DNA from: Phycisphaerales bacterium
GTDB taxonomy: Bacteria; Planctomycetota; Phycisphaerae; Phycisphaerales; UBA1924
Direction of reading: 5' to 3'
Assembly: GCA_045105315.1 (NCBI GenBank)
Contig: JBGCDI010000003.1
Location: 1,709 to 65,708 of the forward strand
Length of the DNA: 64,000 nucleotides
The notes under the pieces were generated by a model. It saw only the letters and a list, made by a program, of their open reading frames with translations, searched no databases and had not been told where the DNA came from. The translations under genes were made by a program, and so were the position numbers. Shown piece after piece: positions 5,668 through 64,000 of this stretch (position 1 is the stretch's first letter; each line of letters begins with the position of its first letter).

Positions 5668-6270
5668 ATGAGTGATAACCGCGCGCAAGGTCAATCGGGG
5701 GGTGAAGGTGTAGGGTCTGGACCGGCTGCGATCTGGGCGCCGTGGCGATTAGCGTACATCGAGTCGTTATCGGAAGACCAGGATTCCAAAGACTCCGCTC
5801 CCTCGTCTCGAAGTGCAGCGCCTCCCGGTTCAACAAGCGGCAGTTTCCTGCTTGATTATTGGAACACTCCAGAACTTGACCAAGAGCACTATGTCATCGA
5901 GCGGACAGATGCTGGTCTGATTCTGCTTAATAGGTATCCGTATTCCAACGGGCACTTGCTGATCGCGCTGGGTGATGCTCGTCCAGCATTGATGGATTAC
6001 GAACCGGATCAACGCGCTGCCCTTTGGGAACTGGTTGACCGCGCGACCGCGCTCGCTGAGCTGGCGCTTGAACCACAAGGATTGAATATTGGGATCAATC
6101 AGGGACGGGCTGGGGGGGCGGGGGTGCCGAGCCATCTGCATGTGCATGTGATCCCCCGCTGGAGCGGGGATACGAACTTTATCACAAGCGTGGGGGGGAT
6201 CCGTGTGATCCCCGGGGCGCTTGAGGCGATGTATGAGCGCTACATGCGAGCAGTCGCGGCTTCGAACTAA
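5668..6270 (+). CDS. HIT family protein (Ap4A-phosphorylase-like)
   Basis: Histidine triad HLHVHVIPRW and N-terminal IWAPWRLAYI. The stop overlaps the convergent NeuB-like stop by 4 nt. Confidence 0.85.
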   Translation: MSDNRAQGQSGGEGVGSGPAAIWAPWRLAYIESLSEDQDSKDSAPSSRSAAPPGSTSGSFLLDYWNTPELDQEHYVIERTDAGLILLNRYPYSNGHLLIALGDARPALMDYEPDQRAALWELVDRATALAELALEPQGLNIGINQGRAGGAGVPSHLHVHVIPRWSGDTNFITSVGGIRVIPGALEAMYERYMRAVAASN

Positions 6271-11100: not shown

Positions 11101-11915
11101 TGCAGGTTCCGCTGAAGCGATGGACCCGCAGCAACCAAGATCGCTGCTTTGCCTGCGCACGAATCTTTAAGCGGGATGATCCCGCTTCGTGATGCGTACA
11201 CCCCGGTGTTCATCAATATATTGCGAAGCGTCACCCCTGAGTGGGCAAGCACCGTAACAAGGTGCGTGCGCGTTGAGCGCACCACATCGAGGAAGTTTGA
11301 AGAAAACGCTGACGCCCGGTCTCCCAATCGCTTCTTGCTCCCAGGATGAGATGCAAGCTCGACACCGGTCGACAAAAACGCTTCGGCGCCGCTAATCAGA
11401 TGCCCGATAGTCGACGCGTCGGTTGTCGTGCTCAGTACAAACAGAGAATCCTGGATCCACTCGCTGTGATCGACGCGCTCCAGAACCGCACGAAGCATCC
11501 CCACATCAGGCTCATAACACAACAACAACGAAAGCTTCCCATGCGCTTGCTGAAGGGCGCGCACATGGTACCCAAGACCAAACCCAAGAATCCCGATAAA
11601 CCCGCAATGCTGAGGATCGTACTGCTCAGCCCATGTACTTGCTTCGCGCGAGGGTTGACGCTTAGAGCACATCGCGCGGCCATCATGGATCGCAACCACC
11701 TCTCCATCAGGACTCCTGAGAAACTGGATGCTTGCATCAGCGTCTGCCGACTCAATTGCAAGCGCTGCCTGAGGCGAGCGCACGCGAATCGCTGCAAGGT
11801 TCCGTTCTAGAATCTCAGGATTCGGAACAACGATACCATCATCCGTCGAAGGGGTCGTACGCGTAGATGAAGTCATGATCCGCTCCAGCTCATTGATTCT
11901 CTTCTCGCAACTCAC
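8169..11915 (-). CDS. Maf/DUF115 (motility-accessory-factor-like) fusion protein carrying a C-terminal radical-SAM-like domain without the Cys triad
   Basis: 1,248 aa. DUF115 pattern AAILVAAGPSLQRNL...IKPHFVTALDHHE...GATVAHLNYYLARYLGCTTAILIGQDLGF. C-terminal IELEITNAPRSGG...IHGRGDPLTHPD...ELRTDL...SVDVL. ATGA overlap with the NeuA-like gene. Confidence 0.7.
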   Translation of the reverse strand: MSCEKRINELERIMTSSTRTTPSTDDGIVVPNPEILERNLAAIRVRSPQAALAIESADADASIQFLRSPDGEVVAIHDGRAMCSKRQPSREASTWAEQYDPQHCGFIGILGFGLGYHVRALQQAHGKLSLLLCYEPDVGMLRAVLERVDHSEWIQDSLFVLSTTTDASTIGHLISGAEAFLSTGVELASHPGSKKRLGDRASAFSSNFLDVVRSTRTHLVTVLAHSGVTLRNILMNTGVYASRSGIIPLKDSCAGKAAILVAAGPSLQRNLHLLEDPSIRDRFVIIAVQTMLKPLLERGIKPHFVTALDHHEISKRFYEGLTTEDVDGVRLVVEPKANAAIVDAFPGEIVCAGEPQLDLLLGDELSREMGTLPSGATVAHLNYYLARYLGCTTAILIGQDLGFTDGQYYASGASIHRVWAGELSEHRTLEMFEWERIMRMKNLLRKRTDVQGRPIYTDEQMSTYIAQFESDFQQDAALNPNNPDHQPMRIINATQGGVHIRNTEVMTLCDAIQEFGSLEQIDLPLTPSELMNDDQHARDVRSRVELIIRQLTSIHRLSERTIELINKAQEHIDDPATVDRCIRQIHTIRDDVTASEPGFGLVNFINQKGALNRFRVDRQISLIKDLDESERQIKQLDRDAHNVQWVKGSALEVKNLVERVLAVLDGTQPPMTRDEFAHEQIEMGSQDQSAQSHQPAQRVEAVIFADPEFGPLGIARPLGQPIHEGLNALELTIQRLTRTSTIDGITIVSPDPESIRMMSIDAQTIPVRVVGVDAQQYRQRSAVIGQARFASSECWRGSIGSMSCYDEGLDPAVLSALMVEHHIDACAVVGSDWAMVDPVLVDQIVSQYRGDPSRCRVPFSQAVPGIGCCVLDADAVDSLARAASASGVLGSVGAMLSYIPIGPQSDPIASPLCVGVDLAARDAGVRVIADTPVRANAMASAYRGLGSYASNAETKVLMQAYTNELALAQNNAPSRIELEITNAPRSGGVWAFHNQHTDPMNRMSIQHAELICSQARTLRPDCSVLIHGRGDPLTHPDVFPMIDTLKSKGIASIELRTDLVDLIVNSTATPEQIIESGIDVLSVDVLANSRSLYEVMTGVDGFERLLDVMQSLFSARNNQASDISGSLPRPWILPRMTRCDAVYADIESFYDRWLTVCGCATIDAPLCAEASDRIQALKVPRDRQEQLDNQILRIASNGRVVDAHRRPIGSINAFELGVHEAYTQLRRVHDHAASVEPKSHITPAGAGA

Positions 11916-24407: not shown

Positions 24408-26087
24408 ATGAACGGTCCACCACACCGCTCATCAACTCAGCTCGTGAGTAAATCCTCAGCACGAAAGCTCATGATCACGATGGGGCAAGTTGACCGCTAT
24501 CACGATCGAAAGCAGGACCAAGCGGTCCTGAACGATGTCTTGGCGCAGATCCGCGCTCAGCATCCCGAGCATGCGCGCAAATGGTTTGATGAGCTCGAAC
24601 CCCTCGGTACCGTCGCAAGCTCTTTCGGGATCCGCGCCCAGAGTGAAATGCACCGCGACTATCTCAGGCGTACATGTCTAGATGCATTCAACGAAGCGCT
24701 CCGAGACATCACTCTTGAGCTGCTCGCGGTCCGGTTCCTTGGACCCCAAGACCAATGGGAAACACCACCAAACACACCCAAGAAATCAAACAAGCAAGCA
24801 ATCCCAAATCAGCTCCCAGCTCAACAAATCGAGCATTCACCCTCGATCAAAAATGATCACACCGCATCCATTCCCCCCACTGAACGCGCTCCAGTGACCC
24901 AAAGCCAATCCAACTCAATCTGGGCTGACGAAGCAGGTGTCCCCCAAAACGAGCTTGATCGCCAAAGTCAGACCAACAACCAAACAGTCAACACCCCGAT
25001 CGTCCACGCGAGCTCAGAACGATCCAGACTCGATTCAAGCGGAGCCCTCCCGATCAATCCTGATTATGGATTCGGCGAGTTCGTCATCGGACCAAACAAC
25101 AGACTCGCCCACGCAGCCTCCGTCGCGGTCTCTGAAAACCCAGGATTCGCGTACAACCCCCTCTTCATCCATGGCGGGGTCGGGCTTGGTAAAACCCACC
25201 TGCTCCAAGCGATCTGCCTGAAAATAACCCAAGAAAATCCCGGGATCAACCTCCATTATGTTTCCTGCGATGGATTCATGACCCAGTTCATGAACGCGGT
25301 CCAGTCCGGACAGATGGCTGAGTTCAGACACACCTTCCGCGATATCGACCTCCTCGTCATCGATGACATCCACTTCCTGGCGCGCAGGGACCGCACGCAA
25401 GAAGAGTTCTTCCATACCTTCAACGCTCTCTATCAAGGCAACAAACAAATCATCCTCTCATCAGACGCTCCACCAGAAGAAATCCCCGATCTCGAAGAAC
25501 GGCTCGTCTCCCGGTTCATGTGGGGGCTGGTAGCCAAAGTCGAGAAGCCGGGATTCGAAACCCGGATCGAGATTCTCAAACGCAAAGCAGATGCTCGCGG
25601 GATCAAACTCCCCGAACCCGTCGTCACCGAAATCGCGCACTACATCGATACCAACATCCGCGAGCTCGAAGGAGCAATCACCAAACTCCAGATATTCGCC
25701 AATGTCGAAAAACGAGACATCGATCTGGACCTCGCGCGCGATGCGCTCGGTCAAGAGTTTGCCAGTGCCGTCAGCGCCCAAGGCACCGGACCAACCATCG
25801 AACGCATCATCTCCGAAATCTCAGGGTACTACTCCGTCAAACGCACCGAAATCCTGGGCAAACGACGACACAAATCCATCGCACTCCCCAGACAAGTCGG
25901 GATGTACCTCACACGCAAATACACCAGACACTCCCTCGAAGAAATCGGCGCCCACTACGGCGGACGAGACCACACCACCGTCATGCACGCGGTCAAAACC
26001 ATCACCGCACGAAGCAAAGAAGACGAATCCCTCCACAGCGATGTCCTCGCAATCGAATCCCGGCTCCGCGTCGGATCTGGCAGCTAA
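24408..26087 (+). CDS. dnaA: chromosomal replication initiator protein DnaA
   Basis: Walker A GGVGLGKTHL, Walker B LLVIDDIHF, C-terminal HTH RRHKSIALPRQVGMYLTRKYT...GGRDHTTVMHA. Long Q/N/P-rich linker. The start may instead be the Met at 24471 or 24480. Confidence 0.92.
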   Translation: MNGPPHRSSTQLVSKSSARKLMITMGQVDRYHDRKQDQAVLNDVLAQIRAQHPEHARKWFDELEPLGTVASSFGIRAQSEMHRDYLRRTCLDAFNEALRDITLELLAVRFLGPQDQWETPPNTPKKSNKQAIPNQLPAQQIEHSPSIKNDHTASIPPTERAPVTQSQSNSIWADEAGVPQNELDRQSQTNNQTVNTPIVHASSERSRLDSSGALPINPDYGFGEFVIGPNNRLAHAASVAVSENPGFAYNPLFIHGGVGLGKTHLLQAICLKITQENPGINLHYVSCDGFMTQFMNAVQSGQMAEFRHTFRDIDLLVIDDIHFLARRDRTQEEFFHTFNALYQGNKQIILSSDAPPEEIPDLEERLVSRFMWGLVAKVEKPGFETRIEILKRKADARGIKLPEPVVTEIAHYIDTNIRELEGAITKLQIFANVEKRDIDLDLARDALGQEFASAVSAQGTGPTIERIISEISGYYSVKRTEILGKRRHKSIALPRQVGMYLTRKYTRHSLEEIGAHYGGRDHTTVMHAVKTITARSKEDESLHSDVLAIESRLRVGSGS

Positions 26088-41555: not shown

Positions 41556-43160
41556 TCAGATAAACACCGGATCTTTGAGCAAGTTTACAAAGAGAATCAT
41601 AAACACAACAAGCGTTGCGTTGTGCACAAAGTGTGCTGTGATGGGCGCGATGATCGAGCCGCGCCACTGACGCATAAACGCAAACATAAACCCAAGAGCA
41701 ATCAACGGCGCCACCATCAAAGGCCCATACGAATGCATATACGCAAACAACAACGCAGTCAGCAGCGCCGCGAGTATCCAGTGCAATCGTCCACGCATAT
41801 GACGGTACAACGCGCCCCGAAAAATCAACTCCTCGGTAATCGGTGCCCAGATCGTCGCAAGCGTCAAAATCAACAACGCGCCAACAATCCCAGAACCCGC
41901 AAGCATCTCAAGAATCGGATTGGTGGGCATGGGCTCAGGATCACCGCCACCACTGCCAGACCCCATCGAGACAAGCCCTTGCAAAATCATGATCAGGAAA
42001 GTGATCCCGACACCAACCGCATACAACGGAACACTCGCAAGATACGCAAGCACACCGCACCCGATCTCTTTCATCACGCCCTCACCAGAATGCAGCCCGA
42101 TCGCGCGTCTCCAATCCGGTGATTTCATCCCACGCATCAGCGCCCACGCGGGAACCACCATCAGCAACCACTGAAGCGGGAGCGATAAAACCCCAAGCAT
42201 CGGATTCACCTTGCTCGCTAGCAAAAAGACTCCGATCGAAAGCACACCAAACGCAAGCAAGAACACCGCGTAGGTCTCAAGAAACACCGAACCACCCGCG
42301 GCCGGTTTCTCGCACCGCATCACAAGCTTGCCCTCAAACATCCGGACTATCCCGATAATCAAAAGCACAAGCCCAGATAAAAATCCGAATACAAACAGCC
42401 CGATCAATCCAAACATCAACAACGCAATCCATATGAATCCATTGACAATCGGTTGGCGACGAGGATCAGAATCATCAATCCCATGCGTGACCGCTGCCTG
42501 TCCAAGTATCCCATACCGAACCAACAGCTGATCCCTCATAGACTCTTCGATTGAGTCCGGTCCAGTTGAATAAATTGAACCAAGCGAATCAAGTTCATCA
42601 AACACAATACTCAAACGAGAAAGCTCAGCCGACCCTGATTCATCGAGTTCTTCAAGCACGATTCCATCACCCTGGACGACTCTGCCGTTCTCCGATACTT
42701 CAACATCATCAAGCCGGCTCTTGAGTTCGAGCCGAGTGGTTTCGATTAGGCTAAGCGCCGATTCAGCGCCCCCAAACTCCCCGCTCATAATGATCCTGCG
42801 GATCTGATCCTCAGGCTCATACGCAAGTTCAAACTGACTCATGACCATCTCAGAATGCTCAGCAAGCATCGACTTGCCCCGAATGAACATCCGGGCCGGG
42901 AGATCAAACTGCCCAAACATCCCTGGCGCCGAGACCTCAGCACTGATCACCGTTTCTGGGACAGGTTCCCCGATCAGCGCGTACTGTGAGTCCTCAGACA
43001 GGTTCTGCCAAAGAATGATCCCGCTCGCAAAGACCACCGCAGCAATCAAAGCCAAAAACCCACTCAGCAGCGTTCCAGGATCAGAATGGGGTCTTTGGTC
43101 GGAATTTGATAGTGTATTCGATAGATTGTCGTCGACTGAATCATGCATGGGTGTTCTCAT
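41556..43160 (-). CDS. CPBP (CAAX-type) intramembrane glutamic endopeptidase with large N-terminal domain
   Basis: 534 aa with motifs ITEELIFRGALY, FAYMHSYG and AHFVHN near the C-terminus. Confidence 0.75.
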   Translation of the reverse strand: MRTPMHDSVDDNLSNTLSNSDQRPHSDPGTLLSGFLALIAAVVFASGIILWQNLSEDSQYALIGEPVPETVISAEVSAPGMFGQFDLPARMFIRGKSMLAEHSEMVMSQFELAYEPEDQIRRIIMSGEFGGAESALSLIETTRLELKSRLDDVEVSENGRVVQGDGIVLEELDESGSAELSRLSIVFDELDSLGSIYSTGPDSIEESMRDQLLVRYGILGQAAVTHGIDDSDPRRQPIVNGFIWIALLMFGLIGLFVFGFLSGLVLLIIGIVRMFEGKLVMRCEKPAAGGSVFLETYAVFLLAFGVLSIGVFLLASKVNPMLGVLSLPLQWLLMVVPAWALMRGMKSPDWRRAIGLHSGEGVMKEIGCGVLAYLASVPLYAVGVGITFLIMILQGLVSMGSGSGGGDPEPMPTNPILEMLAGSGIVGALLILTLATIWAPITEELIFRGALYRHMRGRLHWILAALLTALLFAYMHSYGPLMVAPLIALGFMFAFMRQWRGSIIAPITAHFVHNATLVVFMILFVNLLKDPVFI

Positions 43161-52472: not shown

Positions 52473-53642
52473 CTAGCTCAGATTCACAGGCATCACAACA
52501 TACACAAAGTCGGTCCCCGCTTTGAATAAGCCAGGCTTATTCCCAGACTTAAGCTCGATCATCACCTCAGCATCATCGATCACCTTGAGCGCATCGGTGA
52601 TAAACGCAGGGTTAAACCCAATCTCGATATCATCCCCGTCATATCCCGCAAGCTCAACCTGAATCGTTGCTTCACCCATTTCTGGAGCGCGAGAAGAAAG
52701 TTCCAAAGATTTCTCGCCACCATTAAACGCGAGACGAACGCCCCGAGATTCCTCATTAGTCAACAGTGCAGCACGCTTCACCGCTGATGCGAGCACTTCC
52801 TTCCGAAAGGTCACCTTGATGTCCTGATCCTTGGGAATCACATCCTCATAAGGCGGGAAAGTCCCCTCAACCAGATTCGTCGAAAGGGTCGCCCGAGCAT
52901 CCATCGGATCCTCACCAAACACGATCACGCCCTGATTGTCGGTCACCGCGATGTGCACCAGTTCACTGTCGTCTGCGACCATCTTCTGGATCATCGAGAG
53001 CGCTTTGGATGGAAGAATGCACTGCGCCGGATCACCCTTAGAATCAATCGTCGCGTGACTCTTTGCAAGCCGGCGACCATCAGTCGCAATCAAATCCAGC
53101 TTCTTACCATCACGAACCAAAAGCACACCATTAATCGCGTACCGCGAGTTCTCACGAGCCGCGGCAAACAGCGTCCGAGCAATCAACGAATCAAGCGTAC
53201 CCGCTTCAATCGAGAAGATCGATTTAGCTGCAGGACTCGAAGCAGAACCGCTCGAAACCCCTTTGAAATCAGCAAGTTGCGGGAAGTCGCCCGCACTAAA
53301 TCCATGAAGCTGGAAGTGGGCATCAGCGCCACGGATGTGCGTAGTTTCACCGCTGGATTCGATCGTAAGCGTCGGTTCATTGTCCTCAGCAGACACGATC
53401 TGGCGAAGCTTGTCCGCCGGAACCAAACAGCTCCCCTCTTGCTCAACCTCGACGCGTCCGATCCGCACACTGAGCGCAATCTCTGCATCAGTTCCCGAGA
53501 GGGTAAGTTCAGCACCCTGTGCATCGTTGGTCGCTGTGAGCTTGATACAGGTCAGCTGAGGACGAGGGGAGCGTGAAGCCACCACACCTGAGACCTGATT
53601 GACCGCTTCGAGCAGCGCCGCTCGTTCGCAGATAACTTTCAT
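52473..53642 (-). CDS. dnaN: DNA polymerase III subunit beta (sliding clamp)
   Basis: The Met at 53642 gives MKVICERAALLEAVNQVSGVV. Three-domain clamp pattern ending ...YVVMPVNLS. Confidence 0.92.
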   Translation of the reverse strand: MKVICERAALLEAVNQVSGVVASRSPRPQLTCIKLTATNDAQGAELTLSGTDAEIALSVRIGRVEVEQEGSCLVPADKLRQIVSAEDNEPTLTIESSGETTHIRGADAHFQLHGFSAGDFPQLADFKGVSSGSASSPAAKSIFSIEAGTLDSLIARTLFAAARENSRYAINGVLLVRDGKKLDLIATDGRRLAKSHATIDSKGDPAQCILPSKALSMIQKMVADDSELVHIAVTDNQGVIVFGEDPMDARATLSTNLVEGTFPPYEDVIPKDQDIKVTFRKEVLASAVKRAALLTNEESRGVRLAFNGGEKSLELSSRAPEMGEATIQVELAGYDGDDIEIGFNPAFITDALKVIDDAEVMIELKSGNKPGLFKAGTDFVYVVMPVNLS

Positions 53643-53700
53643 AGATTCGCTCCATCCGCCCATTCAAGCGGTCTTCATTCCCACAGACCGAGTCCAAAGC

Positions 53701-54019: not shown

Positions 54020-55990
54020 ATGTCATTCGAAGCCGCAATCCATGCCCAAGCAATCGAACTCGATCGCCTCTCCCTCGAGATGACCGCCGCCTCAGGCACC
54101 GGTCACCCCACCAGCGCCATGAGCATCGGACACATCGTCACGACCCTCATGTTCTCCGCGATGCGATGGTCACCAGACTACCCAAACTACCCGACCTCAG
54201 ACCGTCTCGTCCTCTCCGAAGGACACGCTGTCCCCGCGGTCTACGCCGCGATGGCCACACTGGGCGTCGTTGTTGGTAAAGCAGACGACCGCCGCAAACT
54301 CACCGTCGATGACCTAAGCACACTCCGCGAATGGCACTCCGTCCTCGATGGTCACCCAAACCCAATGGAAGGGGTCGACTTCTTCGACGCCGCAACCGGT
54401 TCACTCGGTCAAGGACTCTCCGTCGCTGCAGGGGTTGCCAAAGCCGCCCGCATCGATGGTCTCGAGCGCCGGATCTTCTGCATCTGTGGCGACGGCGAAG
54501 TCCGCGAAGGACAAATCGCCGAAGCAATGGACTTCATCGTTGATCACCAACTCTCCAATGTCTGCACCATCGTCAACTGCAACGAGTACGGACAAGCAGA
54601 CCGCGTCTCGGGACAACAATCCCCAGAAGTCCTCGCCGCCAAGTTCGCTGCCTACGGCTTCGAAGTCATCAGCATCGACGGACACGCACCAGATCAAATC
54701 AAATCAGCATTCGATCGCTTCGCAGAAATCTCAAACGATCCAAACGCCAAACCAGTCGCCGTCATCGCAACCACAGTCAAAGGTTGGGGCTGCCCATCAC
54801 TCCAAGGAGGAGGATGGCACGGCAAACCCGCCACCGGTGACGCACTCGAAAAAGCAATCGCAGAACTCAACGAAGCACGCATCGAACTCACCTCCTCACT
54901 CGCAGGAACCGACCAGTTCACCATCGACCCACCAGTCCAAGCACCAGACCGCGCCCTCCCATCAGACGAACTCCTCACGCTCTCCGAAGCGATGAAAGAT
55001 CTCGACATGGAAAGCGTCCTCCACACCGGAAAGTTCGCCACCCGCAAAGCCTACGGCGTTGCCCTCCGTGCACTGGGAGCCACCAACCCAGATGTCGTCG
55101 TCCTCGACGCCGATGTCTCCAACTCAACCTTCTCAGAAACCTTCGCAAAGAACAAAGACAACGCACCCCGGTTCATCGAATGCAAAATCGCTGAGCAAAA
55201 CATGATCAGCGTCGGCGCAGGAATGTCCGCTGCTGGCAAAATCCCGTTCTGCTCAAGCTTCGCCAAGTTCCTCACCCGCGCCTACGACCAAATCGAAATG
55301 GGTATGAACTCAGGCGCGAACCTCAAGATCGTCGGTTCACACTCCGGGATCACCCTCGCAGCAGACGGCCCATCCCAGATGTCACTCCCCGATGTCGCGT
55401 GGTTCCGTTCACTCTCACAAACCACAGATCACAACGGCAACCCCGGATGCTACATCCTCCAGCCATCCGACGCCTACGCCGCCTACGCACTCACCTCAAC
55501 CATGGCTGAGTACGAAGGCATGTGCTACATGCGTACCCTCCGCGCTGACACCGAACTGTTGTACTCCGACGACCATGTCTTTAACCTGGGTGGATTCGAA
55601 ACCCTCGCACAAGGACGCGACATCGTCCTCGCTGCATCAGGAATCATGGTCCACGAAGGCAACAAAGCCGTCGAACTCCTCGACAAAGCAGGCGTCTCCG
55701 CAACCCTCCTCGATATGTACTCGATCCCGTTCGACACCGACAAACTCTTGGACATCGTCGCCGCCAACGGCGGATTCGTCATCTCCCTCGAAGACAACTA
55801 CGGAGGAGGACTGGGCTCAGCAATCGCAGACGCTCTCATGGAATCCGGAGACGGTTTCGAACTCACACAAATGTTCGTAAACAAAATCCCCAAGAGCGCC
55901 AAGACCCCAGAAGAAATGCTCCAGATGACCGGCCTGACCGCAGAAGACATTGTCAACAAAGTCATGGCCCTCCTCGGCGTCCCCGTCTAA
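54020..55990 (+). CDS. tkt: transketolase
   Basis: 656 aa with GTGHPTSAMSIGHIV, SEGHAVPAVYA and the TPP motif GDGEVREGQIAEAMDF...N. Pyrimidine-binding and C-terminal domains are present. Confidence 0.9.
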   Translation: MSFEAAIHAQAIELDRLSLEMTAASGTGHPTSAMSIGHIVTTLMFSAMRWSPDYPNYPTSDRLVLSEGHAVPAVYAAMATLGVVVGKADDRRKLTVDDLSTLREWHSVLDGHPNPMEGVDFFDAATGSLGQGLSVAAGVAKAARIDGLERRIFCICGDGEVREGQIAEAMDFIVDHQLSNVCTIVNCNEYGQADRVSGQQSPEVLAAKFAAYGFEVISIDGHAPDQIKSAFDRFAEISNDPNAKPVAVIATTVKGWGCPSLQGGGWHGKPATGDALEKAIAELNEARIELTSSLAGTDQFTIDPPVQAPDRALPSDELLTLSEAMKDLDMESVLHTGKFATRKAYGVALRALGATNPDVVVLDADVSNSTFSETFAKNKDNAPRFIECKIAEQNMISVGAGMSAAGKIPFCSSFAKFLTRAYDQIEMGMNSGANLKIVGSHSGITLAADGPSQMSLPDVAWFRSLSQTTDHNGNPGCYILQPSDAYAAYALTSTMAEYEGMCYMRTLRADTELLYSDDHVFNLGGFETLAQGRDIVLAASGIMVHEGNKAVELLDKAGVSATLLDMYSIPFDTDKLLDIVAANGGFVISLEDNYGGGLGSAIADALMESGDGFELTQMFVNKIPKSAKTPEEMLQMTGLTAEDIVNKVMALLGVPV

Positions 55991-56082: not shown

Positions 56083-57129
56083 TCAAGGACAGCCAGCCGC
56101 AAACGCAGCAAGGAACGCAGACACATCCAAGAAGTTGAAACTCCCATCCGTCTCAAAGTCCGCCGATGGATCCATCGCTCCATACGCACTGAGAAAAGCT
56201 GAAACATCCAAGAAGTTCAAATCACCCTCGCCGGTCAAATCAGCAAGACACGCTCCCCCAGCTTCCTCAACCACAAGCGTCACCGCGTCCCATGTCTGAC
56301 TCGATTCGATCACCCCAACCTCACTCGCAGCACCCGTCGAAGTATCAACCGTAAACAAACTGCTCGAAATTTCAACAAACACATCAGGGGAAACCTCATT
56401 AAATCCCTGCACAACCGCATAAAGCGTTCCATCAGGCGCAAAGTCCAACCCAGTCTCAAACTGAGCACTAAACCCGATCCCACTCACAGAAAGCGTTGAT
56501 GCAATCGTGTTGGCTCCGAGGTCCACTTCAACAAGCTGCACACCGCCGCCGTTTGTGGTAGCAAGCCCATACAAATCGCCCGCATCCAGGGTCGGATGCC
56601 CCTCCGGAACAATCGCCAAAGATGAGATCGGATTGAAACTCAAAATATTGTTCACGCTCAGCACTTCGCCCGTTGCTGCATCCGCCTGGATAAACCGCAA
56701 GAACGCGCCGACAGTGTTGACCACAATCGCGGTCGACCCATCATTAGTCAATGCCATCCCGACCACACCCGATTCCATAAACCCAATCGAATCAATCAGC
56801 GTGTTCCCGCCGCCCATCACATCAAGCGCCCGAAGCGAGTTGGTCGTATTCTCCACCGCGATCAACGAGCCCGACGAGCTCATATCCGCACCGCCAAACC
56901 GAAGCACATCCCCAGCCATCGGGAAAACCTCAACATCACTCGGATCACTCAGGTTCACCCGCCCAACCACCGCAAGCTCAATCCCCGGCGCACCAAAGAA
57001 TCCCGACCCTTCAATAATGTACGCGTGTGTTGATCCTCCAAAAGAAGACCCAGCACACCCCGTAACAACCAAAGCGCCCGCAAGCACACCATGGATCCGA
57101 TTCTTCGTCGTAGTCATTGCGTATCTCAT
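56083..57129 (-). CDS. secreted lipoprotein, beta-propeller-like body plus double dockerin-like C-terminal tag
   Basis: Lipobox ALVVTGCAG. The last 55 aa are CLADLTGEGDLNFLDVSAFLSAYGAMDPSADFETDGSFNFLDVSAFLAAFAAGCP. ATGA overlap with the upstream gene. Confidence 0.7.
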   Translation of the reverse strand: MRYAMTTTKNRIHGVLAGALVVTGCAGSSFGGSTHAYIIEGSGFFGAPGIELAVVGRVNLSDPSDVEVFPMAGDVLRFGGADMSSSGSLIAVENTTNSLRALDVMGGGNTLIDSIGFMESGVVGMALTNDGSTAIVVNTVGAFLRFIQADAATGEVLSVNNILSFNPISSLAIVPEGHPTLDAGDLYGLATTNGGGVQLVEVDLGANTIASTLSVSGIGFSAQFETGLDFAPDGTLYAVVQGFNEVSPDVFVEISSSLFTVDTSTGAASEVGVIESSQTWDAVTLVVEEAGGACLADLTGEGDLNFLDVSAFLSAYGAMDPSADFETDGSFNFLDVSAFLAAFAAGCP

Positions 57130-58262
57130 TTCTTCACCCCCATTTCATTCATCTCAATCAACTCGCCGCGCTCATCACGCATGATGAGCTCTCGATCCCG
57201 AAGATCAGGCTCCGCTTCCCGATCAACCAACTCAAGATCAACACCACGAATCCGTTTAGGGATCCCAGGCAATACATGCGCCGTGATATACCGGAATCCA
57301 TCACCCGCCGCTTCAGTATCAACAACAAGCCCCGCCCGAGTCACCTCAAAGACACCGCTCGTCGTCGTCACCAGCAGATTCCCATTCCCAAGCTCCGCAA
57401 TACCCCGGTACAACTCAAGTGTCCCAGGATCGTACTGACCCACAAGCGATCCGCTGGAATCAAACTCCAAAATAAACCCGCTGCTAAACGCGCACACGAG
57501 CAAGTTCCCATTACTCGCCACCGCCATCTGCTGAGGAAAGTCCAGCTGCGGAACCGTGATCCCGTTCACAAACCGCTCATTAAACTTCCCCGCAAGCGTG
57601 TACCGAACAATCTTGTCCTGCCCCTCATCCGCAACAAGCACCTCCCCGTTGTACTCAATCGCATCAAACGGCCCCCGGATCCCGCCGTACCTATTAAACG
57701 CAAAATCAGTCATCTCTGATCCGTCAACCGAATCAAGCATCTTCACATTCTTCTGCGAAACAACCAAGTCATTATTCGATCCCGAGTTCGTCACAAGCAC
57801 GCTCCCCGCATGAGGACCACCCGTCAATACATGCCCGCCCCGTATGTTGTCCATGATGCTTGTATCACGCACGCCCCCAAGAGAATAGATCCCAAGATAA
57901 GTCAGCCCATCACTGCTGAACTGCGAGACCACATCAGCAAACTGATCCACCACCAAAAGCGTCCCGTCGCCCCCAACCAAAACCTCCAAAGGCCGATTAA
58001 AAACGTCAACCCCGCCATCACTCCCCGGATCAGTAATAAACCCAGTATCAAGCAGCGATCCATCAAACGCATCAAACATCCACACCGAATCCGACACCGA
58101 ATCAGGAATCAAAAGCACATCCTGAGCCATGCTTACAGGAGCAACCCCGCACACACACACGCACACTGCCCTGATCACATTCGGACCAGCAAAGTATCGA
58201 ATCACATCCTTCACGCCGCACATTTTCATACAAATCCCTTTCCTTTGGATCAGTAGCTTCAA
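57126..58262 (-). CDS. secreted NHL-like beta-propeller protein (no C-terminal tag)
   Basis: 378 aa. Signal-like AVCVCVCGVAPVSMAQ. Repeated ...LVVDQFADVVSQFSSDG..., ...VLVADEGQDKIVRYTLAG..., ...LLVCAFSSGFILEFDSSG... Confidence 0.6.
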   Translation of the reverse strand: MKLLIQRKGICMKMCGVKDVIRYFAGPNVIRAVCVCVCGVAPVSMAQDVLLIPDSVSDSVWMFDAFDGSLLDTGFITDPGSDGGVDVFNRPLEVLVGGDGTLLVVDQFADVVSQFSSDGLTYLGIYSLGGVRDTSIMDNIRGGHVLTGGPHAGSVLVTNSGSNNDLVVSQKNVKMLDSVDGSEMTDFAFNRYGGIRGPFDAIEYNGEVLVADEGQDKIVRYTLAGKFNERFVNGITVPQLDFPQQMAVASNGNLLVCAFSSGFILEFDSSGSLVGQYDPGTLELYRGIAELGNGNLLVTTTSGVFEVTRAGLVVDTEAAGDGFRYITAHVLPGIPKRIRGVDLELVDREAEPDLRDRELIMRDERGELIEMNEMGVKK

Positions 58263-58450
58263 TCAGTGTTCTCAATCGTACCACAACGCTCCCAAAACGT
58301 GAATACAAAAAATAATGAATAATCCGGTATTGGCCAGTGTTTCATTCATCCCGCCCCAGTGCCCATCAAAACCGTATGAAAACAATCCATATCTACTCTC
58401 AGAAATATACAGCACAAACCTCCACCTTCATATTCCTGAAAGGAACCATC

Positions 58451-58939
58451 ATGAAAACGCTCACAATCACTGCTCTGCTCACAACCTCCCTCATGCTCAC
58501 CGGATGCACAAAATCCGACTCGCAAACCGCTTCCGATTCAGCTCCAGCTCAAGATTCAATCGTTGATTCAATGACCGATCAAGCACAAGAAGTCATCCAA
58601 GACCAAATCGACGCAGTCGAAGAATCCGCTCTCCACACCGGATCATTCTCCGGACGCAACGACCACATCGTCACCGGCACCGTCACCATCGTCAAAGCAG
58701 GCGACAAACAGTTCCTCGTCCTCGGACCAGCATTCACCCTCGACGGCGCACCAGATCCAAAAATCGGATTCGGTTCAAACGACACCTACGACGCCGAATC
58801 AATGTTCACACCGCTCAACAAACTCACCGGCACCCAGCGCTACGAGATCCCCGCAAACATCGATCCATCAAGCTACAACCAGGTCTACATCTGGTGCGAC
58901 AAGTTCTCCGTCGCCCTCGGCGTTGCATCAATCGAATAA
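58451..58939 (+). CDS. DM13-domain lipoprotein
   Basis: The Met at 58451 follows aaaggaacc. Lipobox LMLTGC. GSFSGRNDHIVTGTVTIVKAGDKQFLVLGPAFTLDGAPDPKIGFG...IWCDKFSVALGVA. Confidence 0.75.
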   Translation: MKTLTITALLTTSLMLTGCTKSDSQTASDSAPAQDSIVDSMTDQAQEVIQDQIDAVEESALHTGSFSGRNDHIVTGTVTIVKAGDKQFLVLGPAFTLDGAPDPKIGFGSNDTYDAESMFTPLNKLTGTQRYEIPANIDPSSYNQVYIWCDKFSVALGVASIE

Positions 58940-58970
58940 CCCAACAACAAACAGTCATCAACGACCATAA

Positions 58971-59009
58971 AAAAAGACACGCGAGCACCGCTCGCGTGTC
59001 TTCATTTTT
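58971..59009. terminator. bidirectional hairpin terminator between the convergent genes
   Basis: agacacgcgagc (58975-58986) pairs with gctcgcgtgtct (58990-59001), flanked by aaaaa and tcattttt. Confidence 0.6.
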
Positions 59010-59035
59010 ATGCATACATCAAACTCACACTCACA

Positions 59036-61027
59036 TCACGGACAACCCGCCCCAAACGCCGTCAGAAACGCCGAAACATCAAAGAAGTCAAAGCTCCCGT
59101 CCCCAGTAAAGTCCGCCGAAGGATCAGAGTTCCCGAACGCGGTTAAGAATGCACTCACATCAAAGAAGTCCAGCACCCCGTCGCCAGTGAGGTCAGCCAA
59201 ACAAACACTGGTATCCTCAACAATGTCGAGATTGATCCCGAACAAAACCTCGTTGATTTCATACAACAAACCTGCTGGTGCATCAGGAAGAACCACAGCA
59301 TCAAACGCCCCGACAACTTCGGTTCCAACCTCACCAAAGACCAATCTGAATGAGTCTCCAGCTGTTGGTGTATACTCGTCAACAAACTCAACACGCAGCT
59401 CTCCGCCAAGATTCAGCAACGCGCCGATATCGACAAAGAGCTCACCATCGTCATTTAACGATTCATGTCCAATCAGTAACTCAACCTTGCTCGTCGAGGT
59501 CAGTGTCATCTCGTCGAGAATTTCAAACCTTGGCTGCGGAACGAGTTTGCCCTCCACTGTGTAGTTGCCGTCAAACTCAGCCTCGCCCGAAATACGCTGA
59601 CCAGATCCAAAAGTCGCATTCGTCGCGCTAAAACCTCCGAGCGGGTAGTCAACATGAAACCCGCCAGTACCCTCGATTACAGCATCACTCCCGAACTCGA
59701 TGTCCATCGGGAAGATTTCGTCTGGATCAGTCTGGATGAGACCGTTATTCGTAAAGTTCCCCGAGATCCGAAGTTCCCCGTCACCTGATATCGAGAAGAG
59801 CCCATCGTTCGTACCTCCGATGAGATCGACCTGCGCGTAGTACACCGAGATATACCCATCCCCAAGCGTATTGAAGTAGCAATCCACCATGTTCGCAAAC
59901 TCACCAAGTCCAAGGCCCGATCCGCTCGCAGCTCCAAAGAGCCCAGACCCAGAGAAGCTATCAGTTAGTAGAAGCAGAAATTCAGGATCATCCGCGATGA
60001 TGGATCCGTTGTTCACAAAGTTGCCTCCGGATCCATCAGGGGTACCAATGACCCCCGCTCCTCGCACGGTCATGTTCTGCCCGATTGTTCCGGTGACTCC
60101 ACTATTGGTCGTCATATATGCCTTCGACGAGAAACCGGAGTGCAAGATAATCTCACCATTGCCCAGGATCGAAGCGTCAGAGGTAATCCTGAGCTCAGGC
60201 TCGTTCGCATCGACCTCGCTATTGATAACAATCTGGCCATTATTCAAGACAGAACCATCAACATGCAATCGGTGAAACGAATCAATCACATCGATCCGCC
60301 CGTTGATTTGCACATTGCTGATCGTTGCTGCAATACCACTAAGAATATATGGCCCCTCCACACGGATCACGCCGCCGTTAGTCGTAAACAACTCACCGCC
60401 GGTGATTGAGAGGCCGCCTTGGAGCAAGATTTCCCCGCCGTTGGCGCCGATGCGCCCGCTTGGTCCCTGCGTGATTGTGAAATCGAGTTCGAGCCCGACA
60501 CCGCCAATGTCATCTGCAACCACAATCCCATCATTATGGAAACTGCCTTCTATCCGTCCAGAGCCACCAATGGTATGTCCGGGTCCATTGGTAAGCGATG
60601 CGTTGTTCAGCGCATCAATGGTTGCGCCGCCCATTTCAAAAACTGCTCCCAATTCCACGCGTCCGTTTCCATCGAACCGACGATCTAAACTAAGATCGAT
60701 TTTTCCCGACTCGAGCCGCAGCGTTCCACTATTCAAGACATCTCCAGCAAGATCTAACTCCGCTCCCTGAATCAGCAGCGTTGCATCCGGATTCTGAATC
60801 GTAATATCACGAACCAGCGTTGGCATGTCGACTGTAACTGTGTACGGCAAGACATGCCCAAGCAGCACATCCGACCCCCCAAAATCAGGCACAACGCCAA
60901 GCGACCAGTTCGACGCCAGATGCCAATCCCCATCAACAGGAGAAACCCATTCATGCAACTGAGCGTGTCCAGAAGTAGCAGTACATCCAAATGCAACGAG
61001 CGTAGCAAAGAGAATTGATCGCATCAA
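59036..61027 (-). CDS. secreted beta-helix (autotransporter-associated beta-strand-repeat-like) protein with double dockerin-like C-terminal tag
   Basis: Signal MMRSILFATLVAFGCTATSGHAQ. GDWHLASNWSLGVVP opening and repetitive G/N/I-rich strands. Tail CLADLTGDGVLDFFDVSAFLTAFGNSDPSADFTGDGSFDFFDVSAFLTAFGAGCP. Confidence 0.7.
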   Translation of the reverse strand: MMRSILFATLVAFGCTATSGHAQLHEWVSPVDGDWHLASNWSLGVVPDFGGSDVLLGHVLPYTVTVDMPTLVRDITIQNPDATLLIQGAELDLAGDVLNSGTLRLESGKIDLSLDRRFDGNGRVELGAVFEMGGATIDALNNASLTNGPGHTIGGSGRIEGSFHNDGIVVADDIGGVGLELDFTITQGPSGRIGANGGEILLQGGLSITGGELFTTNGGVIRVEGPYILSGIAATISNVQINGRIDVIDSFHRLHVDGSVLNNGQIVINSEVDANEPELRITSDASILGNGEIILHSGFSSKAYMTTNSGVTGTIGQNMTVRGAGVIGTPDGSGGNFVNNGSIIADDPEFLLLLTDSFSGSGLFGAASGSGLGLGEFANMVDCYFNTLGDGYISVYYAQVDLIGGTNDGLFSISGDGELRISGNFTNNGLIQTDPDEIFPMDIEFGSDAVIEGTGGFHVDYPLGGFSATNATFGSGQRISGEAEFDGNYTVEGKLVPQPRFEILDEMTLTSTSKVELLIGHESLNDDGELFVDIGALLNLGGELRVEFVDEYTPTAGDSFRLVFGEVGTEVVGAFDAVVLPDAPAGLLYEINEVLFGINLDIVEDTSVCLADLTGDGVLDFFDVSAFLTAFGNSDPSADFTGDGSFDFFDVSAFLTAFGAGCP

Positions 61028-61119
61028 TAACCCCTATCTATTCAGTAAAGCAGCATCACGCCCAATGACGCGATGTTGCACAGTGTAAGCAATCTTCACT
61101 AAGAACACAAGGTAATTTC

Positions 61120-63153
61120 TTACGAACACCCCGCCGCAAACGCCGCGAGAAAAGCAGACACATCCAAGAAGTTAAAGTTCCCATCCCCAGCAAAGTCCGC
61201 AGCCGGATCCTGACTCCCAAACGCCGCGAGAAACGCCGAGACATCCAAGAAGTTCAGATCACCCTCGCCCGTCAGATCCGCCGGGCAATCATCCCCGTCA
61301 AGATACACAATCGATAAATCGTCAAGCCCATCATCACCCAAAGTAAACTCACCAACCTCAGCATCAAGCGTACTCTCACCAGGCGCGACCTGACCAAACT
61401 CAAAGTTCATATTCCCGCGCAGTTTCATGTACAAATCATTCCAATCGTCATGCCCGACATGCACCTCAAGATTCGGAGGCGCCATCGGATTAATACGATT
61501 CACATCAAGCGCAAACCCCTCAGTGTTCAGCGCCCCGTCGACATCCCAGTCAACAGAATCCCCGGGTCCGCCGCGAGCCGCCCAAATCTGATTGTCCCCG
61601 CTGGGATTCACCGGAGAGTCATTCCCAAACACAAACAAACGATCAGCAGTGGAGGGGTCACTCGATGCGATACCCGCAGACTCAGACAAGTTAAACTCAT
61701 CCACATCCGGAAGCTTGCTCCTCGAAAAATCTGTCCGCAGCGCATCATTCCAACCAGCCCCCCAGTTCGTCCGCCGGTACACATGCATGTAGTTCATCAC
61801 ACTAAAGTAGTTGGGTTTATAGTTCACATTGTCATCGCCCCCGTGCCGCAATCCAAGATTGTGCCCAAGCTCATGCATAATCGTCCGCGCCTGATCACCA
61901 GGATCAAGATCCGGATTCTGCAAGGTAATGACAAAGTCATCCCCAATAATCTCGCCCATGCCCCCAGGTGTAAACATTCTGCCAGGAATAATCACAGTAA
62001 GCTTCCCGCCAACAACACCATACCGGTACACCAACGACTTCGCCTGAATCACCGCTTCCGATATTGGCGATGCCCGCTCCGCCGGGGTCCCAAAGAAGTT
62101 CTCCCGCTGAGCCTGAAGCTGATTCCGGATCGTGCTGGTATTACTCCCCGATTGATCATCCACATAGTTCATGTCAGTAATACTGTTCTCATCAATATCC
62201 ATATGCAGATTGATGCCCTCAAACCCGTTCGGATTTGAAACAGGCGCATTCTCAAATGAATCAACCACCTGATCAAGCACATCCTGCGAAACATTCCCGC
62301 TCGCGTGCACATCAATCTCAACAAACAAGTCCTTCTGATCAACAGCCGCCCCCATCCCAGGCAGATCAATCTCAGGAACCCCGTCCATCTCAAAGTCAAT
62401 CCCCTCATCCTCCCACGCATCAAACAGCCCGTCCTGATCCGTATCAACATAATCCAGCCGAGCCACAAACCGCCCGCTCAGCTCCGCAACACTCGCCGCC
62501 CCGCTCTCATCCACTCCCGTCGACACCGTCGCCTGCACCAAAAGCGAGTACATCCCATCAGGATACAGCGTCACCGTATCAATAAACCGAATCTCGTTAC
62601 TGACATTCCCATCCATCGCAAACGAACTCAGCTCGCTCTGAACATTCACAAACTCACCCGGATTCGATGGACTAAACCCAAGCAACTGAAAACGAACCAA
62701 CACAACCGCGCCCGATGTAAACCCCATCGGCAAAGGCTGATCCAAAATAAACCCGCCCGATACCGCAACATCAGTCTCAAACACCGTTGTCAACGCCGCC
62801 CCCGCCGCCCCACCAGCATTGGCAGAAATATTGAGCGCATTGCCAAGCGTCACCTGCGACGACAACTCCGTCACAAACTCAAGCCCCAGATCATCAAGAC
62901 GGATCGCAACATCCGCAGAAGCAACCCCGCTCCCACCATCAATCCCAACAAACGCAGATAGATCCTCAACAAGCGACCCCGCCACCATCAGCTCGCGCTC
63001 TTGCTCATCAAGAAAAGACTCAAATGTACCCCGTTCTGTCCCCGACGCCTCAACCCTCGTCGTCAGATTCACCTCCCCAACCTCAAGCTGCCCCCAGCAC
63101 ACCGAAGTAAGCATCGCAAAACAAACACCCAAAGCACACACTGAACGAATCAT
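61120..63153 (-). CDS. secreted zinc metalloprotease (HExxH...H) with double dockerin-like C-terminal tag
   Basis: Signal MIRSVCALGVCFAMLTSVCWG. TIMHELGHNLGLRHGG. Tail CPADLTGEGDLNFLDVSAFLAAFGSQDPAADFAGDGNFNFLDVSAFLAAFAAGCS. Confidence 0.75.
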   Translation of the reverse strand: MIRSVCALGVCFAMLTSVCWGQLEVGEVNLTTRVEASGTERGTFESFLDEQERELMVAGSLVEDLSAFVGIDGGSGVASADVAIRLDDLGLEFVTELSSQVTLGNALNISANAGGAAGAALTTVFETDVAVSGGFILDQPLPMGFTSGAVVLVRFQLLGFSPSNPGEFVNVQSELSSFAMDGNVSNEIRFIDTVTLYPDGMYSLLVQATVSTGVDESGAASVAELSGRFVARLDYVDTDQDGLFDAWEDEGIDFEMDGVPEIDLPGMGAAVDQKDLFVEIDVHASGNVSQDVLDQVVDSFENAPVSNPNGFEGINLHMDIDENSITDMNYVDDQSGSNTSTIRNQLQAQRENFFGTPAERASPISEAVIQAKSLVYRYGVVGGKLTVIIPGRMFTPGGMGEIIGDDFVITLQNPDLDPGDQARTIMHELGHNLGLRHGGDDNVNYKPNYFSVMNYMHVYRRTNWGAGWNDALRTDFSRSKLPDVDEFNLSESAGIASSDPSTADRLFVFGNDSPVNPSGDNQIWAARGGPGDSVDWDVDGALNTEGFALDVNRINPMAPPNLEVHVGHDDWNDLYMKLRGNMNFEFGQVAPGESTLDAEVGEFTLGDDGLDDLSIVYLDGDDCPADLTGEGDLNFLDVSAFLAAFGSQDPAADFAGDGNFNFLDVSAFLAAFAAGCS

Positions 63154-63334
63154 AATTTAAATCTCATCAATCAAGTATCAACACCCACACCCAAGATCAA
63201 CAAACCGATCCAAAGCTCAGTGTCATAAATAAATCGAACCACTAATATACATAAAAACGACTCCTGATCAAAACCAGAAGTCGTAAGAATGATCACAAAT
63301 TTGTGAACTCAATTCAGCATTCTGCCCTCGATGC

Positions 63335-64000
63335 TCACGGACACCCCATCCCAAACCGCAACAAGAACTCCGAAACATCAAAGAAGTTCAACGCCCCATC
63401 GTCGTTGAGATCAACAACACAAGCATCAGGATCGGAGCGGACAGCAAGGATCGCCGTATCACTCGTTACATCACCATACGGGTTTGTGATCAAACAGTCG
63501 TAAAAACCTACAGCACCCTCATCTCCCAAGACCTGCAACACAGCTGAGTTGACGCCCATAACCGTGAGACTATCCATGAGCGGAACCCCATCGCGCCTCC
63601 ACTGGTAATCAGCATCTGAATCATCGTTGAGCGTGATACTAAAGCTCGCAAACACGCCAGCATCAACAATGATCGATTCTGGTTGCTGATCCACTATCGG
63701 CCCAAGGTAGTACACATACGCCGAGCCAATGTCCACACCCTCTTTACCATCACCACGCGGCGCCCCGGCGACAATTGTGTTCCCAGAGATCCCAACCGAT
63801 GTGCCAAACAGATCAAACATCGCGCCGTCAGAGGAAGTCAGCTCCAAGATCTGCTCACCGGTCGCTATATCAAAGACAAAGGCTGTGCCGGTATTGGTAG
63901 TAACACCCTCGGAGTTCAGTGCCCCGATGACCGCTATGTCGCCCGAGATTGCCACAGATTCCCCAAAGAAGTCGCTCTCCATAGCGTCTGTCGCAGTCAG
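63335..64000 (-). CDS. FG-GAP-like repeat plus Ig-like domain protein with single dockerin-like C-terminal loop, 5'-truncated by window edge
   Basis: The frame is open to nt 64000. FFGESVAISGDIAVIGA and LFGTSVGISGNTIVAGAP. Ig-like YQWRRDG...YDCLITNPYGDVTS. Tail CVVDLNDDGALNFFDVSEFLLRFGMGCP. Confidence 0.65.
   Translation of the reverse strand: MTATDAMESDFFGESVAISGDIAVIGALNSEGVTTNTGTAFVFDIATGEQILELTSSDGAMFDLFGTSVGISGNTIVAGAPRGDGKEGVDIGSAYVYYLGPIVDQQPESIIVDAGVFASFSITLNDDSDADYQWRRDGVPLMDSLTVMGVNSAVLQVLGDEGAVGFYDCLITNPYGDVTSDTAILAVRSDPDACVVDLNDDGALNFFDVSEFLLRFGMGCP

Follow-up and report, generated by a model that had tools for sequence, protein, structure and literature searches.

The 64-kb stretch of contig JBGCDI010000003.1 of a Phycisphaerales bacterium that was analysed here (the window) carries four genes on the minus strand, which we call p1 to p4, whose products have bodies that are unrelated to each other and end in the same kind of C-terminal tail. 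The tails of p1, p2 and p3 are GC-type dockerin domains, members of the NCBIfam family NF041540, and that of p4 is a truncated relative. We believe, with a confidence only somewhat above even, that the tail is a dockerin with Ca2+-type loops and a disulfide clasp, which would dock varied proteins exported by the Sec pathway onto a common envelope receptor. Public annotation already lists both the family and these very proteins, so the finding is less novel than was implied by a first-pass annotation of the window made from its letters; the interest lies in the explanation of a catalogued domain family which that annotation had correctly recognised. The additions of the present analysis are small: the reading of two cysteines as a disulfide clasp, the strict -G-C-P terminus, the coupled F/F and L/L flavours of the tail, a recurrent Cys-bracketed half-dockerin that is missed by the NCBIfam model, and the swapping of the tag on the protease family of p3.

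Gene p1 (56083 to 57129) encodes 348 aa with a lipobox-type signal peptide (...LVVTGC, lipobox VVTGC), and the only Pfam match of its body is a weak, sub-threshold one to DUF4394; this body is 63-70% identical to orthologues in five other loci (L007, L017, L036, L063, L075). Gene p2 (59036 to 61027, 663 aa) encodes a signal peptide and a repetitive, beta-helix-like body that has no significant match in Pfam and is 26-34% identical to large repetitive proteins of related loci. Gene p3 (61120 to 63153, 677 aa) encodes a signal peptide and a metzincin-type metalloprotease with the motif HELGHNLGLRH at about residues 423-433, its Pfam matches to Reprolysin, M10, M11 and M66 being all sub-threshold. 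Gene p4 (63335 to 64000) encodes, as far as the window reaches, 221 C-terminal aa of a protein with FG-GAP and Ig-like parts (FG-GAP_2 E 1.3e-23; weak Ig I-set, E 0.0017). Its reading frame is open through base 64000 (222 codons; the list of open reading frames (ORFs) gave 63335-63982) and its N-terminus therefore lies outside the window. The Pfam search and the signal peptides legible in the sequence at the N-termini of p1, p2 and p3 bear out the earlier description of unrelated bodies that are exported wherever the N-terminus is visible.

The three full tails occupy positions 56083 to 56250 (p1), 59036 to 59203 (p2) and 61120 to 61287 (p3), in each case a Cys-bracketed double-loop module of 55 aa followed by the stop codon, and the proteins end in ...CLADLTGEGDLNFLDVSAFLSAYGAMDPSADFETDGSFNFLDVSAFLAAFAAGCP, ...CLADLTGDGVLDFFDVSAFLTAFGNSDPSADFTGDGSFDFFDVSAFLTAFGAGCP and ...CPADLTGEGDLNFLDVSAFLAAFGSQDPAADFAGDGNFNFLDVSAFLAAFAAGCS, respectively. 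They share the architecture C-x2-[12-residue loop]-helix-linker-[12-residue loop]-helix-G-C-[P/S]-stop, which written as a motif is C-x2-D-x10-D-V-S-A-F-L-...-D-x10-D-V-S-A-F-L-...-G-C-[P/S]-stop; the p2 tail is of the F/F, D/D flavour and that of p3 ends in GCS. The tail of p4 (63335 to 63421) is a 28-aa version with one loop, ...CVVDLNDDGALNFFDVSEFLLRFGMGCP, also followed directly by the stop codon, and all four termini read G-C-[P/S]-stop. A six-frame motif scan of the 64 kb found no copies of the tail beyond these four and, together with the ORF list, confirmed the four genes, the three 55-aa modules and the single-loop fourth that had been described before. At the DNA level the three full tails have diverged at many synonymous sites, among them Ser codons of the TCN and AGY types, while the protein sequence is kept, which indicates that the similarity is held at the protein level and does not come from a recent copying of DNA.

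NF041540 is named 'GC-type dockerin domain-anchored protein' (dockerin_GC) and has 67 profile positions and a curated cut-off of 29 bits. The tails of p1, p2 and p3 score 41.1, 44.3 and 45.7 bits with the whole profile (1-67) covered, with E-values for the three full tails of 1.8e-10, 1.8e-11 and 6.6e-12; in p1 the match spans residues 294-347. As in the family, these tails align end to end, are C-terminal and Cys-bracketed and have the Gly-Cys(-Pro) end, although their flavour, 'NF[FL]DVSAFL', scores lower (41-46 bits) than others such as a 'VNTQDFIAYL' tail at 70 bits. The single-loop tail of p4 was undetected by the NF041540 profile and is a truncated relative rather than a scored member. 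The first-pass annotation had mentioned a GC-type dockerin label for tails of this kind; the label exists, and it already stands on a GenBank protein (P0178) that is 100% identical to p3 and carries the title 'MAG: GC-type dockerin domain-anchored protein [Phycisphaerales bacterium]', MAG standing for metagenome-assembled genome. A search of a literature library found no paper in it containing the phrase 'GC-type dockerin', and the word 'anchored' in the family name is thus an inference of annotation.

The family is large. A 58-aa tail used as homologue query returned only short gene fragments, which were used for profile building, and a profile of 27 tails, run against database representatives clustered at 50% identity, found 17,831 representatives at E≤0.001 and 3,201 at E≤1e-10. 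Among 145 new top representatives 133 end in GCP and most of the listed matches consist of one stretch reaching to the final residue; the outliers among the top representatives are multi-repeat dockerin/EF-hand-like proteins. A locus search in one genome per species gave more than 590 matching stretches, of which at least 569 were confirmed, and the best 79 were analysed as loci L001-L079. All the informative record titles of these loci are Phycisphaerales, Phycisphaeraceae or Planctomycetota MAGs, five titles being just 'bacterium', and the best 79 alone include about ten or more copies from each of several genomes.

The position of the module is strict. Each of the 79 primary matches is followed at once by a stop codon, and a six-frame scan of the 79 loci and the window for the loop-helix core found 152 ORFs, in 150 of which the motif is at most 12 residues from the stop (145 with a double loop and five with a single core match, four of these being true half-modules). 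The extreme C-terminal, and not internal, location supposed in the first place is therefore general in this sample. In the remaining two ORFs the copy is N-masked in one case and, in the other, degenerate and without the cysteines. A Cys-less double-loop copy (...GNFFDLSWFLTEF...RFDFFDVSFFLSAYTQGLP...) was seen on the minus strand of L074 in frame 1 (ORF ending at aa index 462); beyond it the frame stays open for some 200 codons, antisense to other tag genes, and the copy has probably decayed. Tagged genes also occur together, 42 of the 80 sequences having two or more of them and up to five being found in 6 kb.

Export was assessed with a simple home-made signal-peptide heuristic, applied to tagged representatives of at least 250 aa and to untagged ORFs of the window. 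N-termini resembling a signal peptide were found in 62 of 88 tagged proteins vs 9 of 38 untagged ones (Fisher p = 1.6e-6), an enrichment that had been expected, and several of the heuristic 'negatives' plainly bear a signal peptide, either without Lys/Arg or behind a mis-called start. The cargo is diverse: in 87 tagged representatives the Pfam matches were to FG-GAP_2 (20), LVIVD (16), Beta_propel (8), Chlam_PMP (3), Peptidase_M66 (2), Reprolysin_3 (2), di-haem peroxidase, GH16, CBM56 and others. One tagged representative of 350 aa (P0067) ends in a GC tail, yet its N-terminus (VLVIGGGIAGIQAALDLA) resembles a FAD/NAD Rossmann motif of the cytoplasmic kind; it may reflect a fusion made in gene calling, or else cargo that truly escapes the export rule.

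The homologues of the p3 protease show what can stand in place of the tail. At the position of the GC tail, P0202, a distant homologue and the only one with such a tail, has a Por_Secre_tail of the type IX secretion system (T9SS), P0235, P0240 and P0249 (Bathyarchaeota MAG), among others, have a transmembrane segment with a poly-basic tail, and P0211 and P0222 have Gly-Cys-rich transmembrane tails. That the tail is interchangeable with known retention signals gives indirect support to an anchoring role.

We take GC-type dockerins for a divergent branch, centred on Planctomycetota, of the type I dockerin/F-hand family. Dockerin_1 (PF00404) was the commonest Pfam match among the 27 tails (19 of 27 at E≤1), the best reaching 4.9e-4, about 21 bits and so below the gathering score of 22.9 bits, and EF-hand_1 was weakly matched by 11 of the 27. 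When the 27-tail profile was compared with all PDB sequences, dockerins came at the top (2y3n_B E 0.009, 2b59_B 0.12, 5lxv_B 0.14, 3kcp 0.44). Moreover, p3 homologues in other lineages bear other flavours of a Cys-bracketed double-loop tail ending in G-C, for example ...DLNGDGAVGSADLAVVLGSWG...ACP and ...VNTQDFIAYLNLW...GC. Nine of ten such tails pass the NF041540 cut-off, with up to 70 bits, and four of the ten also pass the gathering score of Dockerin_1 (24.0, 28.4, 28.9 and 30.9 bits), so that the window tails are linked to dockerins transitively. To judge by these profile scores, the family otherwise consists of ordinary Pfam dockerins, and the 'NF[FL]DVSAFL' tails of the window are a divergent flavour of it.

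The predicted fold may point the same way. An AlphaFold2 model of the p3 tail built from 27 sequences (mean pLDDT 93.3) has two helices, at residues 16-27 and 43-55, each straight after a loop; the helix that would precede loop 1 in an EF-hand is absent, which makes the unit a dockerin-like F-hand. Of the PDB entries, 2vn5, a dockerin from Clostridium cellulolyticum, gave the best TM-score (TMq 0.56-0.57, TMt 0.58-0.59, rmsd 2.8 A over 51 columns), whereas calmodulins reached about 0.3. With type I dockerins (PF00404; PDB 2vn5, 2y3n, 5lxv) the GC tails share the duplicated unit of a 12-residue Ca2+-type loop and a helix, a high internal symmetry like that of dual-binding-mode dockerins, the C-terminal position on secreted proteins with varied bodies, and, probably, termini that are brought together in a clasp. 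They differ from them in a shorter linker between the repeats (gaps of 4-6 residues in the PDB profile alignments), in a hydrophobic recognition dyad, F-[FL], in the invariant Cys pair that would replace an aromatic/Pro or electrostatic clasp, in cargo that is not cellulolytic and in a host that is a diderm planctomycete and not a Gram-positive anaerobe.

The loci L001-L079, the window and the representatives P0001-P0177 together supplied 281 distinct tails of canonical length for position statistics. Both loops fit the 12-residue EF-hand/dockerin spacing, as the first-pass annotation had suggested, and like those of dockerins they close with Asp at position 12. Asp at positions 1 and 12 and Phe at position 10 occur in 100% of the tails. 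Position 3 holds T/N in 94% in loop 1, and in loop 2 T/N in 70% or E in 15%. D/E occupies position 5 in 95-97% and G position 6 in 94-97%; a hydrophobic residue stands at position 8 (L in loop 1, F/Y in loop 2), N/D at position 9 in 99-100% and F or L at position 11, and V-S-A-F-L comes directly after each loop. The deviation from the type I dockerin loop pattern consists in T (sometimes N) at position 3 and D/E at position 5. To judge by this pattern, the tail may bind Ca2+.

The bracketing cysteines, Cys1, three residues before the first D of loop 1, and Cys54, the penultimate residue, are each conserved in 100% of the 281 tails, so that the invariance of the first and penultimate Cys noted in the window extends to the sample; G53 is conserved in 99% and the last residue is Pro in 275 of the 281. 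Intact dockerins have been reported to possess an 'intramolecular clasp' that joins three residues before loop 1 to C-terminal residues (Slutzki et al., PMC3821032), with no mention in that paper of a disulfide in the clasp. The Cys1 and penultimate Cys of the GC tail fall exactly at the clasp-forming positions of solved dockerins, so a covalent clasp is the natural reading, and most likely the two residues form a disulfide, which would be a covalent version of the non-covalent clasp of cellulosomal dockerins. No clear tail with just one of the two Cys was found, which is a weak test since the sample almost wholly has both. The half-module of p4 retains both, and in two distant relatives (P0036 and P0037) a separate Cys pair brackets each of four double-loop modules that lie internally and in tandem. 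In these two proteins the tandem modules are followed by a Gly-rich region and a peptidoglycan-binding-like C-terminus, so that the module is used there in a non-terminal position.

The two 20-residue halves of the tail are 73% identical on average and change in step. Position 11 is F in both repeats in 151 tails, L in both in 124 and mixed in one of 276, counts which are not phylogenetically independent, and position 9 (N/D) and a helix F/Y also co-vary between the repeats. Loop positions 10-11 correspond to the cohesin-recognition dyad of classical dockerins, and the PDB entry title of 2vn5 mentions a dual binding mode. The F/F and L/L symmetry fits a module with two faces that are kept equivalent, and speaks for a common partner of the tails. 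Loci with several tags are of uniform flavour (31 L, 10 F), the sole exception being the present window, which mixes L/L (p1, p3), F/F (p2) and an F half-module (p4).

The half-module of p4 recurs in other loci. In L063 (Phycisphaerales JB052) a protein with an Ig-like region and a single-loop tail is 43% identical to p4 over 124 residues, and its gene lies immediately upstream of the orthologues of p1 and of the neighbouring gene p5 described below; in L050 and L058 a single-loop tail that ends in GCPE is found on a different, beta-helix-like body. A word-index homologue search with the Ig region and single-loop tail of p4 gave no matches, and the recurrence was seen in the loci instead. Ruminococcus flavefaciens has naturally truncated, single-loop (group-2) dockerins that are functional, and two such units can sit in one cohesin (PMC12270676). 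The tails of p4, L063, L050 and L058 likewise keep one loop-helix unit, and differ in that the GC half-module is still bracketed by two Cys. By analogy the half-dockerin of p4 probably acts in pairs, and Cys residues would then come together between chains, the N-side one of the first with the C-side one of its partner.

From these data we would picture the system as follows. The tail would consist of two near-identical 12-residue Ca2+-type loops with a short helix after each, and the helices would pack antiparallel so that the N- and C-termini of the module are brought together; the first and the penultimate Cys would meet there and likely form the disulfide. Proteins with many different bodies would be exported by Sec, and the tail would then attach each of them, without a covalent bond, to one shared envelope receptor, cohesin-like or otherwise. 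As an effect, proteases, adhesin-like propellers and beta-helices would be held at the cell surface or in a multiprotein assembly.

Several observations weigh against this docking model. The dockerin/EF-hand character proposed in the first-pass annotation stood with NF041540 and not with the Pfam models, for which the link passes through the other flavours: two window tails reach 12.7-13.6 bits with Dockerin_1 and the others give no match, all below 22.9 bits, and the best EF-hand score is 18.1 bits with EF-hand_6, whose gathering score is 25 bits, the tails being likewise below the Pfam thresholds of EF-hand_1, _5 and _7. The Foldseek E-value of the AlphaFold2 tail model is about 8 with none ≤0.001, although for a domain this small E-values are uninformative. 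Ca2+ loops do not usually have Thr at position 3. Moreover, 'ADLAEPFG...' loops with Ala/Pro at positions 3 and 5 were seen in L007 (nt ~4694), L045 (~5514) and L076 (~5511), and 'AEPFG' loops also in P0194, P0199, P0209 and P0212, with the rest of the module and both Cys kept; such loops probably lack side-chain Ca2+ ligands at these two positions, so Ca2+ may be dispensable in some members. The signal-peptide heuristic is home-made and its control set small. No Pfam Cohesin match was found in the 36 window ORFs scanned, in agreement with the first-pass annotation, which had recognised no receptor or processing enzyme in the window, and no cohesin or other candidate receptor in the inspected neighbourhoods of tagged genes. 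In falling below the Pfam gathering score and in lacking a cohesin among the ORFs scanned, the window tails also depart from type I dockerins. In addition, p1 is already a lipoprotein and would not need its tail for mere anchoring, and the host is diderm, as BamA, Skp and LpxC encoded in the window imply, so that Sec export delivers to the periplasm and either an outer-membrane route is needed or the docking is periplasmic.

This last point is one of those that favour another explanation, in which the tail is a C-terminal secretion or sorting signal read by an outer-membrane translocon or a processing enzyme, as in the T9SS or in PEP-CTERM/exosortase-like systems, and might be removed or modified at its Gly-Cys-Pro end. 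A diderm host requires an outer-membrane crossing step, and the module resembles the C-terminal domain (CTD) of T9SS cargo and the PEP-CTERM/exosortase, LPXTG/sortase and MYXO-CTERM signals in being a single, strictly C-terminal module with a near-invariant G-C-P end that is found on many unrelated Sec-exported proteins; homologous proteases carry T9SS or transmembrane sorting tails at the equivalent position, and the window encodes a CPBP-type intramembrane protease and a PEP-CTERM-like protein. However, the tails are acidic and amphipathic and have no hydrophobic span or Arg/Lys cluster, so they do not follow the pattern of sorting signals: they lack the transmembrane helix and basic cluster of exosortase, sortase, rhombosortase and myxosortase signals. 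Nor are they a beta-sandwich of about 70-100 aa like the T9SS CTD (PF18962/TIGR04183), for which the tagged window proteins gave no Pfam or NCBIfam match, since the AlphaFold2 model consists of two helices; by sequence and fold the closest relatives are dockerins. Moreover a terminal signal would not explain the distant relatives that have the Cys-bracketed module internally and in tandem, and the CPBP gene is 14 kb away, with a weak, sub-cut-off similarity to sorting proteases. We regard a secretion signal as quite improbable.

The tail could otherwise be a Ca2+-binding module that stabilises the protein or associates with itself and has no dedicated receptor, binding glycans or pairing into an extracellular matrix. 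This would agree with the lack of a cohesin in the ORFs scanned, with EF-hand families being the second commonest weak Pfam matches, with single-loop tails that probably need pairing, and with the richness in Phe (F at loop positions 10 and 16, F/L at 11), which is more aromatic than a 55-aa core seems to need. The conservation of the helix face is nevertheless extreme across unrelated cargo and the halves change in step, for which one specific partner is a better fit, and self-association alone leaves retention at the cell unexplained; such a module is in our view unlikely, yet deserves to be kept in mind. An artefact, be it chance similarity, low complexity or a recently copied, functionless DNA cassette, has nothing in its favour except the shortness of the module, and we give it practically no credence in view of the NF041540 E-values down to 6.6e-12, the 17,831 database clusters, the synonymous divergence with protein conservation among the three window copies and the orthologues that keep the tail at 50-70% body identity.

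The docking model has a precedent in the same class of bacteria. A hypothetical cohesin/dockerin 'planctosome' that bears peptidases was proposed for Nemodlikiaceae (Phycisphaerae) by Andrei et al. 2019 (PMC6461901), and a scaffoldin with two cohesins has been described in Limihaloglobus, also of the class Phycisphaerae (PMC11557425). The planctosome places dockerin-bearing Zn peptidases, including reprolysin-like M12B ones, on an envelope-tethered scaffold, and p3 is likewise a metzincin with a dockerin-type tail. It differs in resting on Pfam cohesin/dockerin matches in freshwater MAGs, being itself a hypothesis, whereas no cohesin was found in the window ORFs scanned. A more far-reaching proposal, which we consider doubtful, is that GC-type dockerins are the cargo half of a novel surface-display system of Phycisphaerae and related Planctomycetota, with a non-cohesin receptor, disulfide-locked tags, two receptors or sites for the F/F and L/L flavours, and half-dockerins that dimerise. 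If true, each cell would have on its diderm envelope a 'planctosome'-like assembly in which proteases, adhesin-like propellers and beta-helices are organised by the tens. Whatever its mechanism, the family decorates the exported proteome of abundant marine and freshwater planctomycetes. The identity of the receptor would show how planctomycetes hold proteases and adhesin-like proteins at their unusual envelope and would test the 'planctosome' idea. In addition, a very small disulfide-locked docking tag (55 aa, or 28 aa in the half version) could serve protein engineering.

Among the genes next to the tagged ones, p5 (57126 to 58262, minus strand) encodes 378 aa with a signal peptide and weak NHL/SGL beta-propeller-like matches and without a tail. 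Its stop codon overlaps the start of p1 (ATGA), and the p5-p1 pair is syntenic in the same five Phycisphaerales MAG loci that hold the p1 orthologues, with 63-75% identity (68-75% for p5). The product of p5 may ride on, or be tethered through, tagged p1. A gene for a DM13-domain lipoprotein (58337 to 58939, plus strand; PF10517 E 1.9e-13) lies inside the tagged cluster and has a lipobox, LMLTGC, after an internal Met. It was considered as a receptor and set aside; no homologue of it lies near the tagged genes of the 79 loci. When all ORFs of the 79 loci were clustered, the recurrent untagged 'families' were antisense shadow ORFs or looked like housekeeping genes, such as methionine synthase-like and shikimate-pathway-like ones (read by eye, without family search), and no candidate receptor emerged. 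In the neighbourhood of P0009, on a contig of 119 kb, just transporters and glycosyltransferases were found near the tag gene.

The rest of the window is of a housekeeping kind, with CysH- and CysN-type domains, NeuB, DnaA, TatC, an ECF sigma factor, LysRS, LpxC, Skp, BamA, DnaN and a transketolase-like ORF (54020-55990, read by eye), and an Rfam scan of the window found no RNA family. The ORF at 2211-2891 (minus strand, 226 aa) encodes a signal peptide and ends in ...IPAPGALALLGLGAATTIRRRR before the stop codon, in which PAPGALALLGLGAATTIRRRR is PEP-CTERM-like in its motif, transmembrane helix and Arg cluster. Its NCBIfam PEP-CTERM match is far below the cut-off (20.6 vs 80 bits); by this resemblance, a C-terminal sorting signal of the transmembrane type is in use in this genome as well. 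The ORF at 41556-43160 (minus strand, 534 aa) encodes a CPBP/Rce1-like intramembrane glutamic protease (PF02517 E 2e-18) with weak, sub-cut-off similarity to Mrt-type sorting proteases of the JDVT-, Synerg- and MYXO-CTERM systems. It was considered as an enzyme that processes the tail Cys and was set aside, being 14 kb away and unlinked, with NCBIfam scores below the cut-off and a tail that has no CAAX- or transmembrane-type signal. No link was found between the GC tails and either of these two ORFs.

Further from the tagged genes, the ORF at 8169-11915 (minus strand, 1248 aa) encodes an MptE-like domain, with similarity to PseD-like flagellin modification, and a C-terminal radical-SAM/SPASM-like region. 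It adjoins genes for a NeuB-type sialic/pseudaminic acid synthase and a cytidylyltransferase (6267-7502, 7411-8172), the whole being a nonulosonic-acid glycosylation locus. From 18000 to 64000, over some 46 kb, the plus strand has a persistently negative GC skew (to -0.33) and a positive AT skew, with genes on both strands. The genes dnaA (24408-26087) and dnaN (52473-53663) are not adjacent and lie 26 kb apart.

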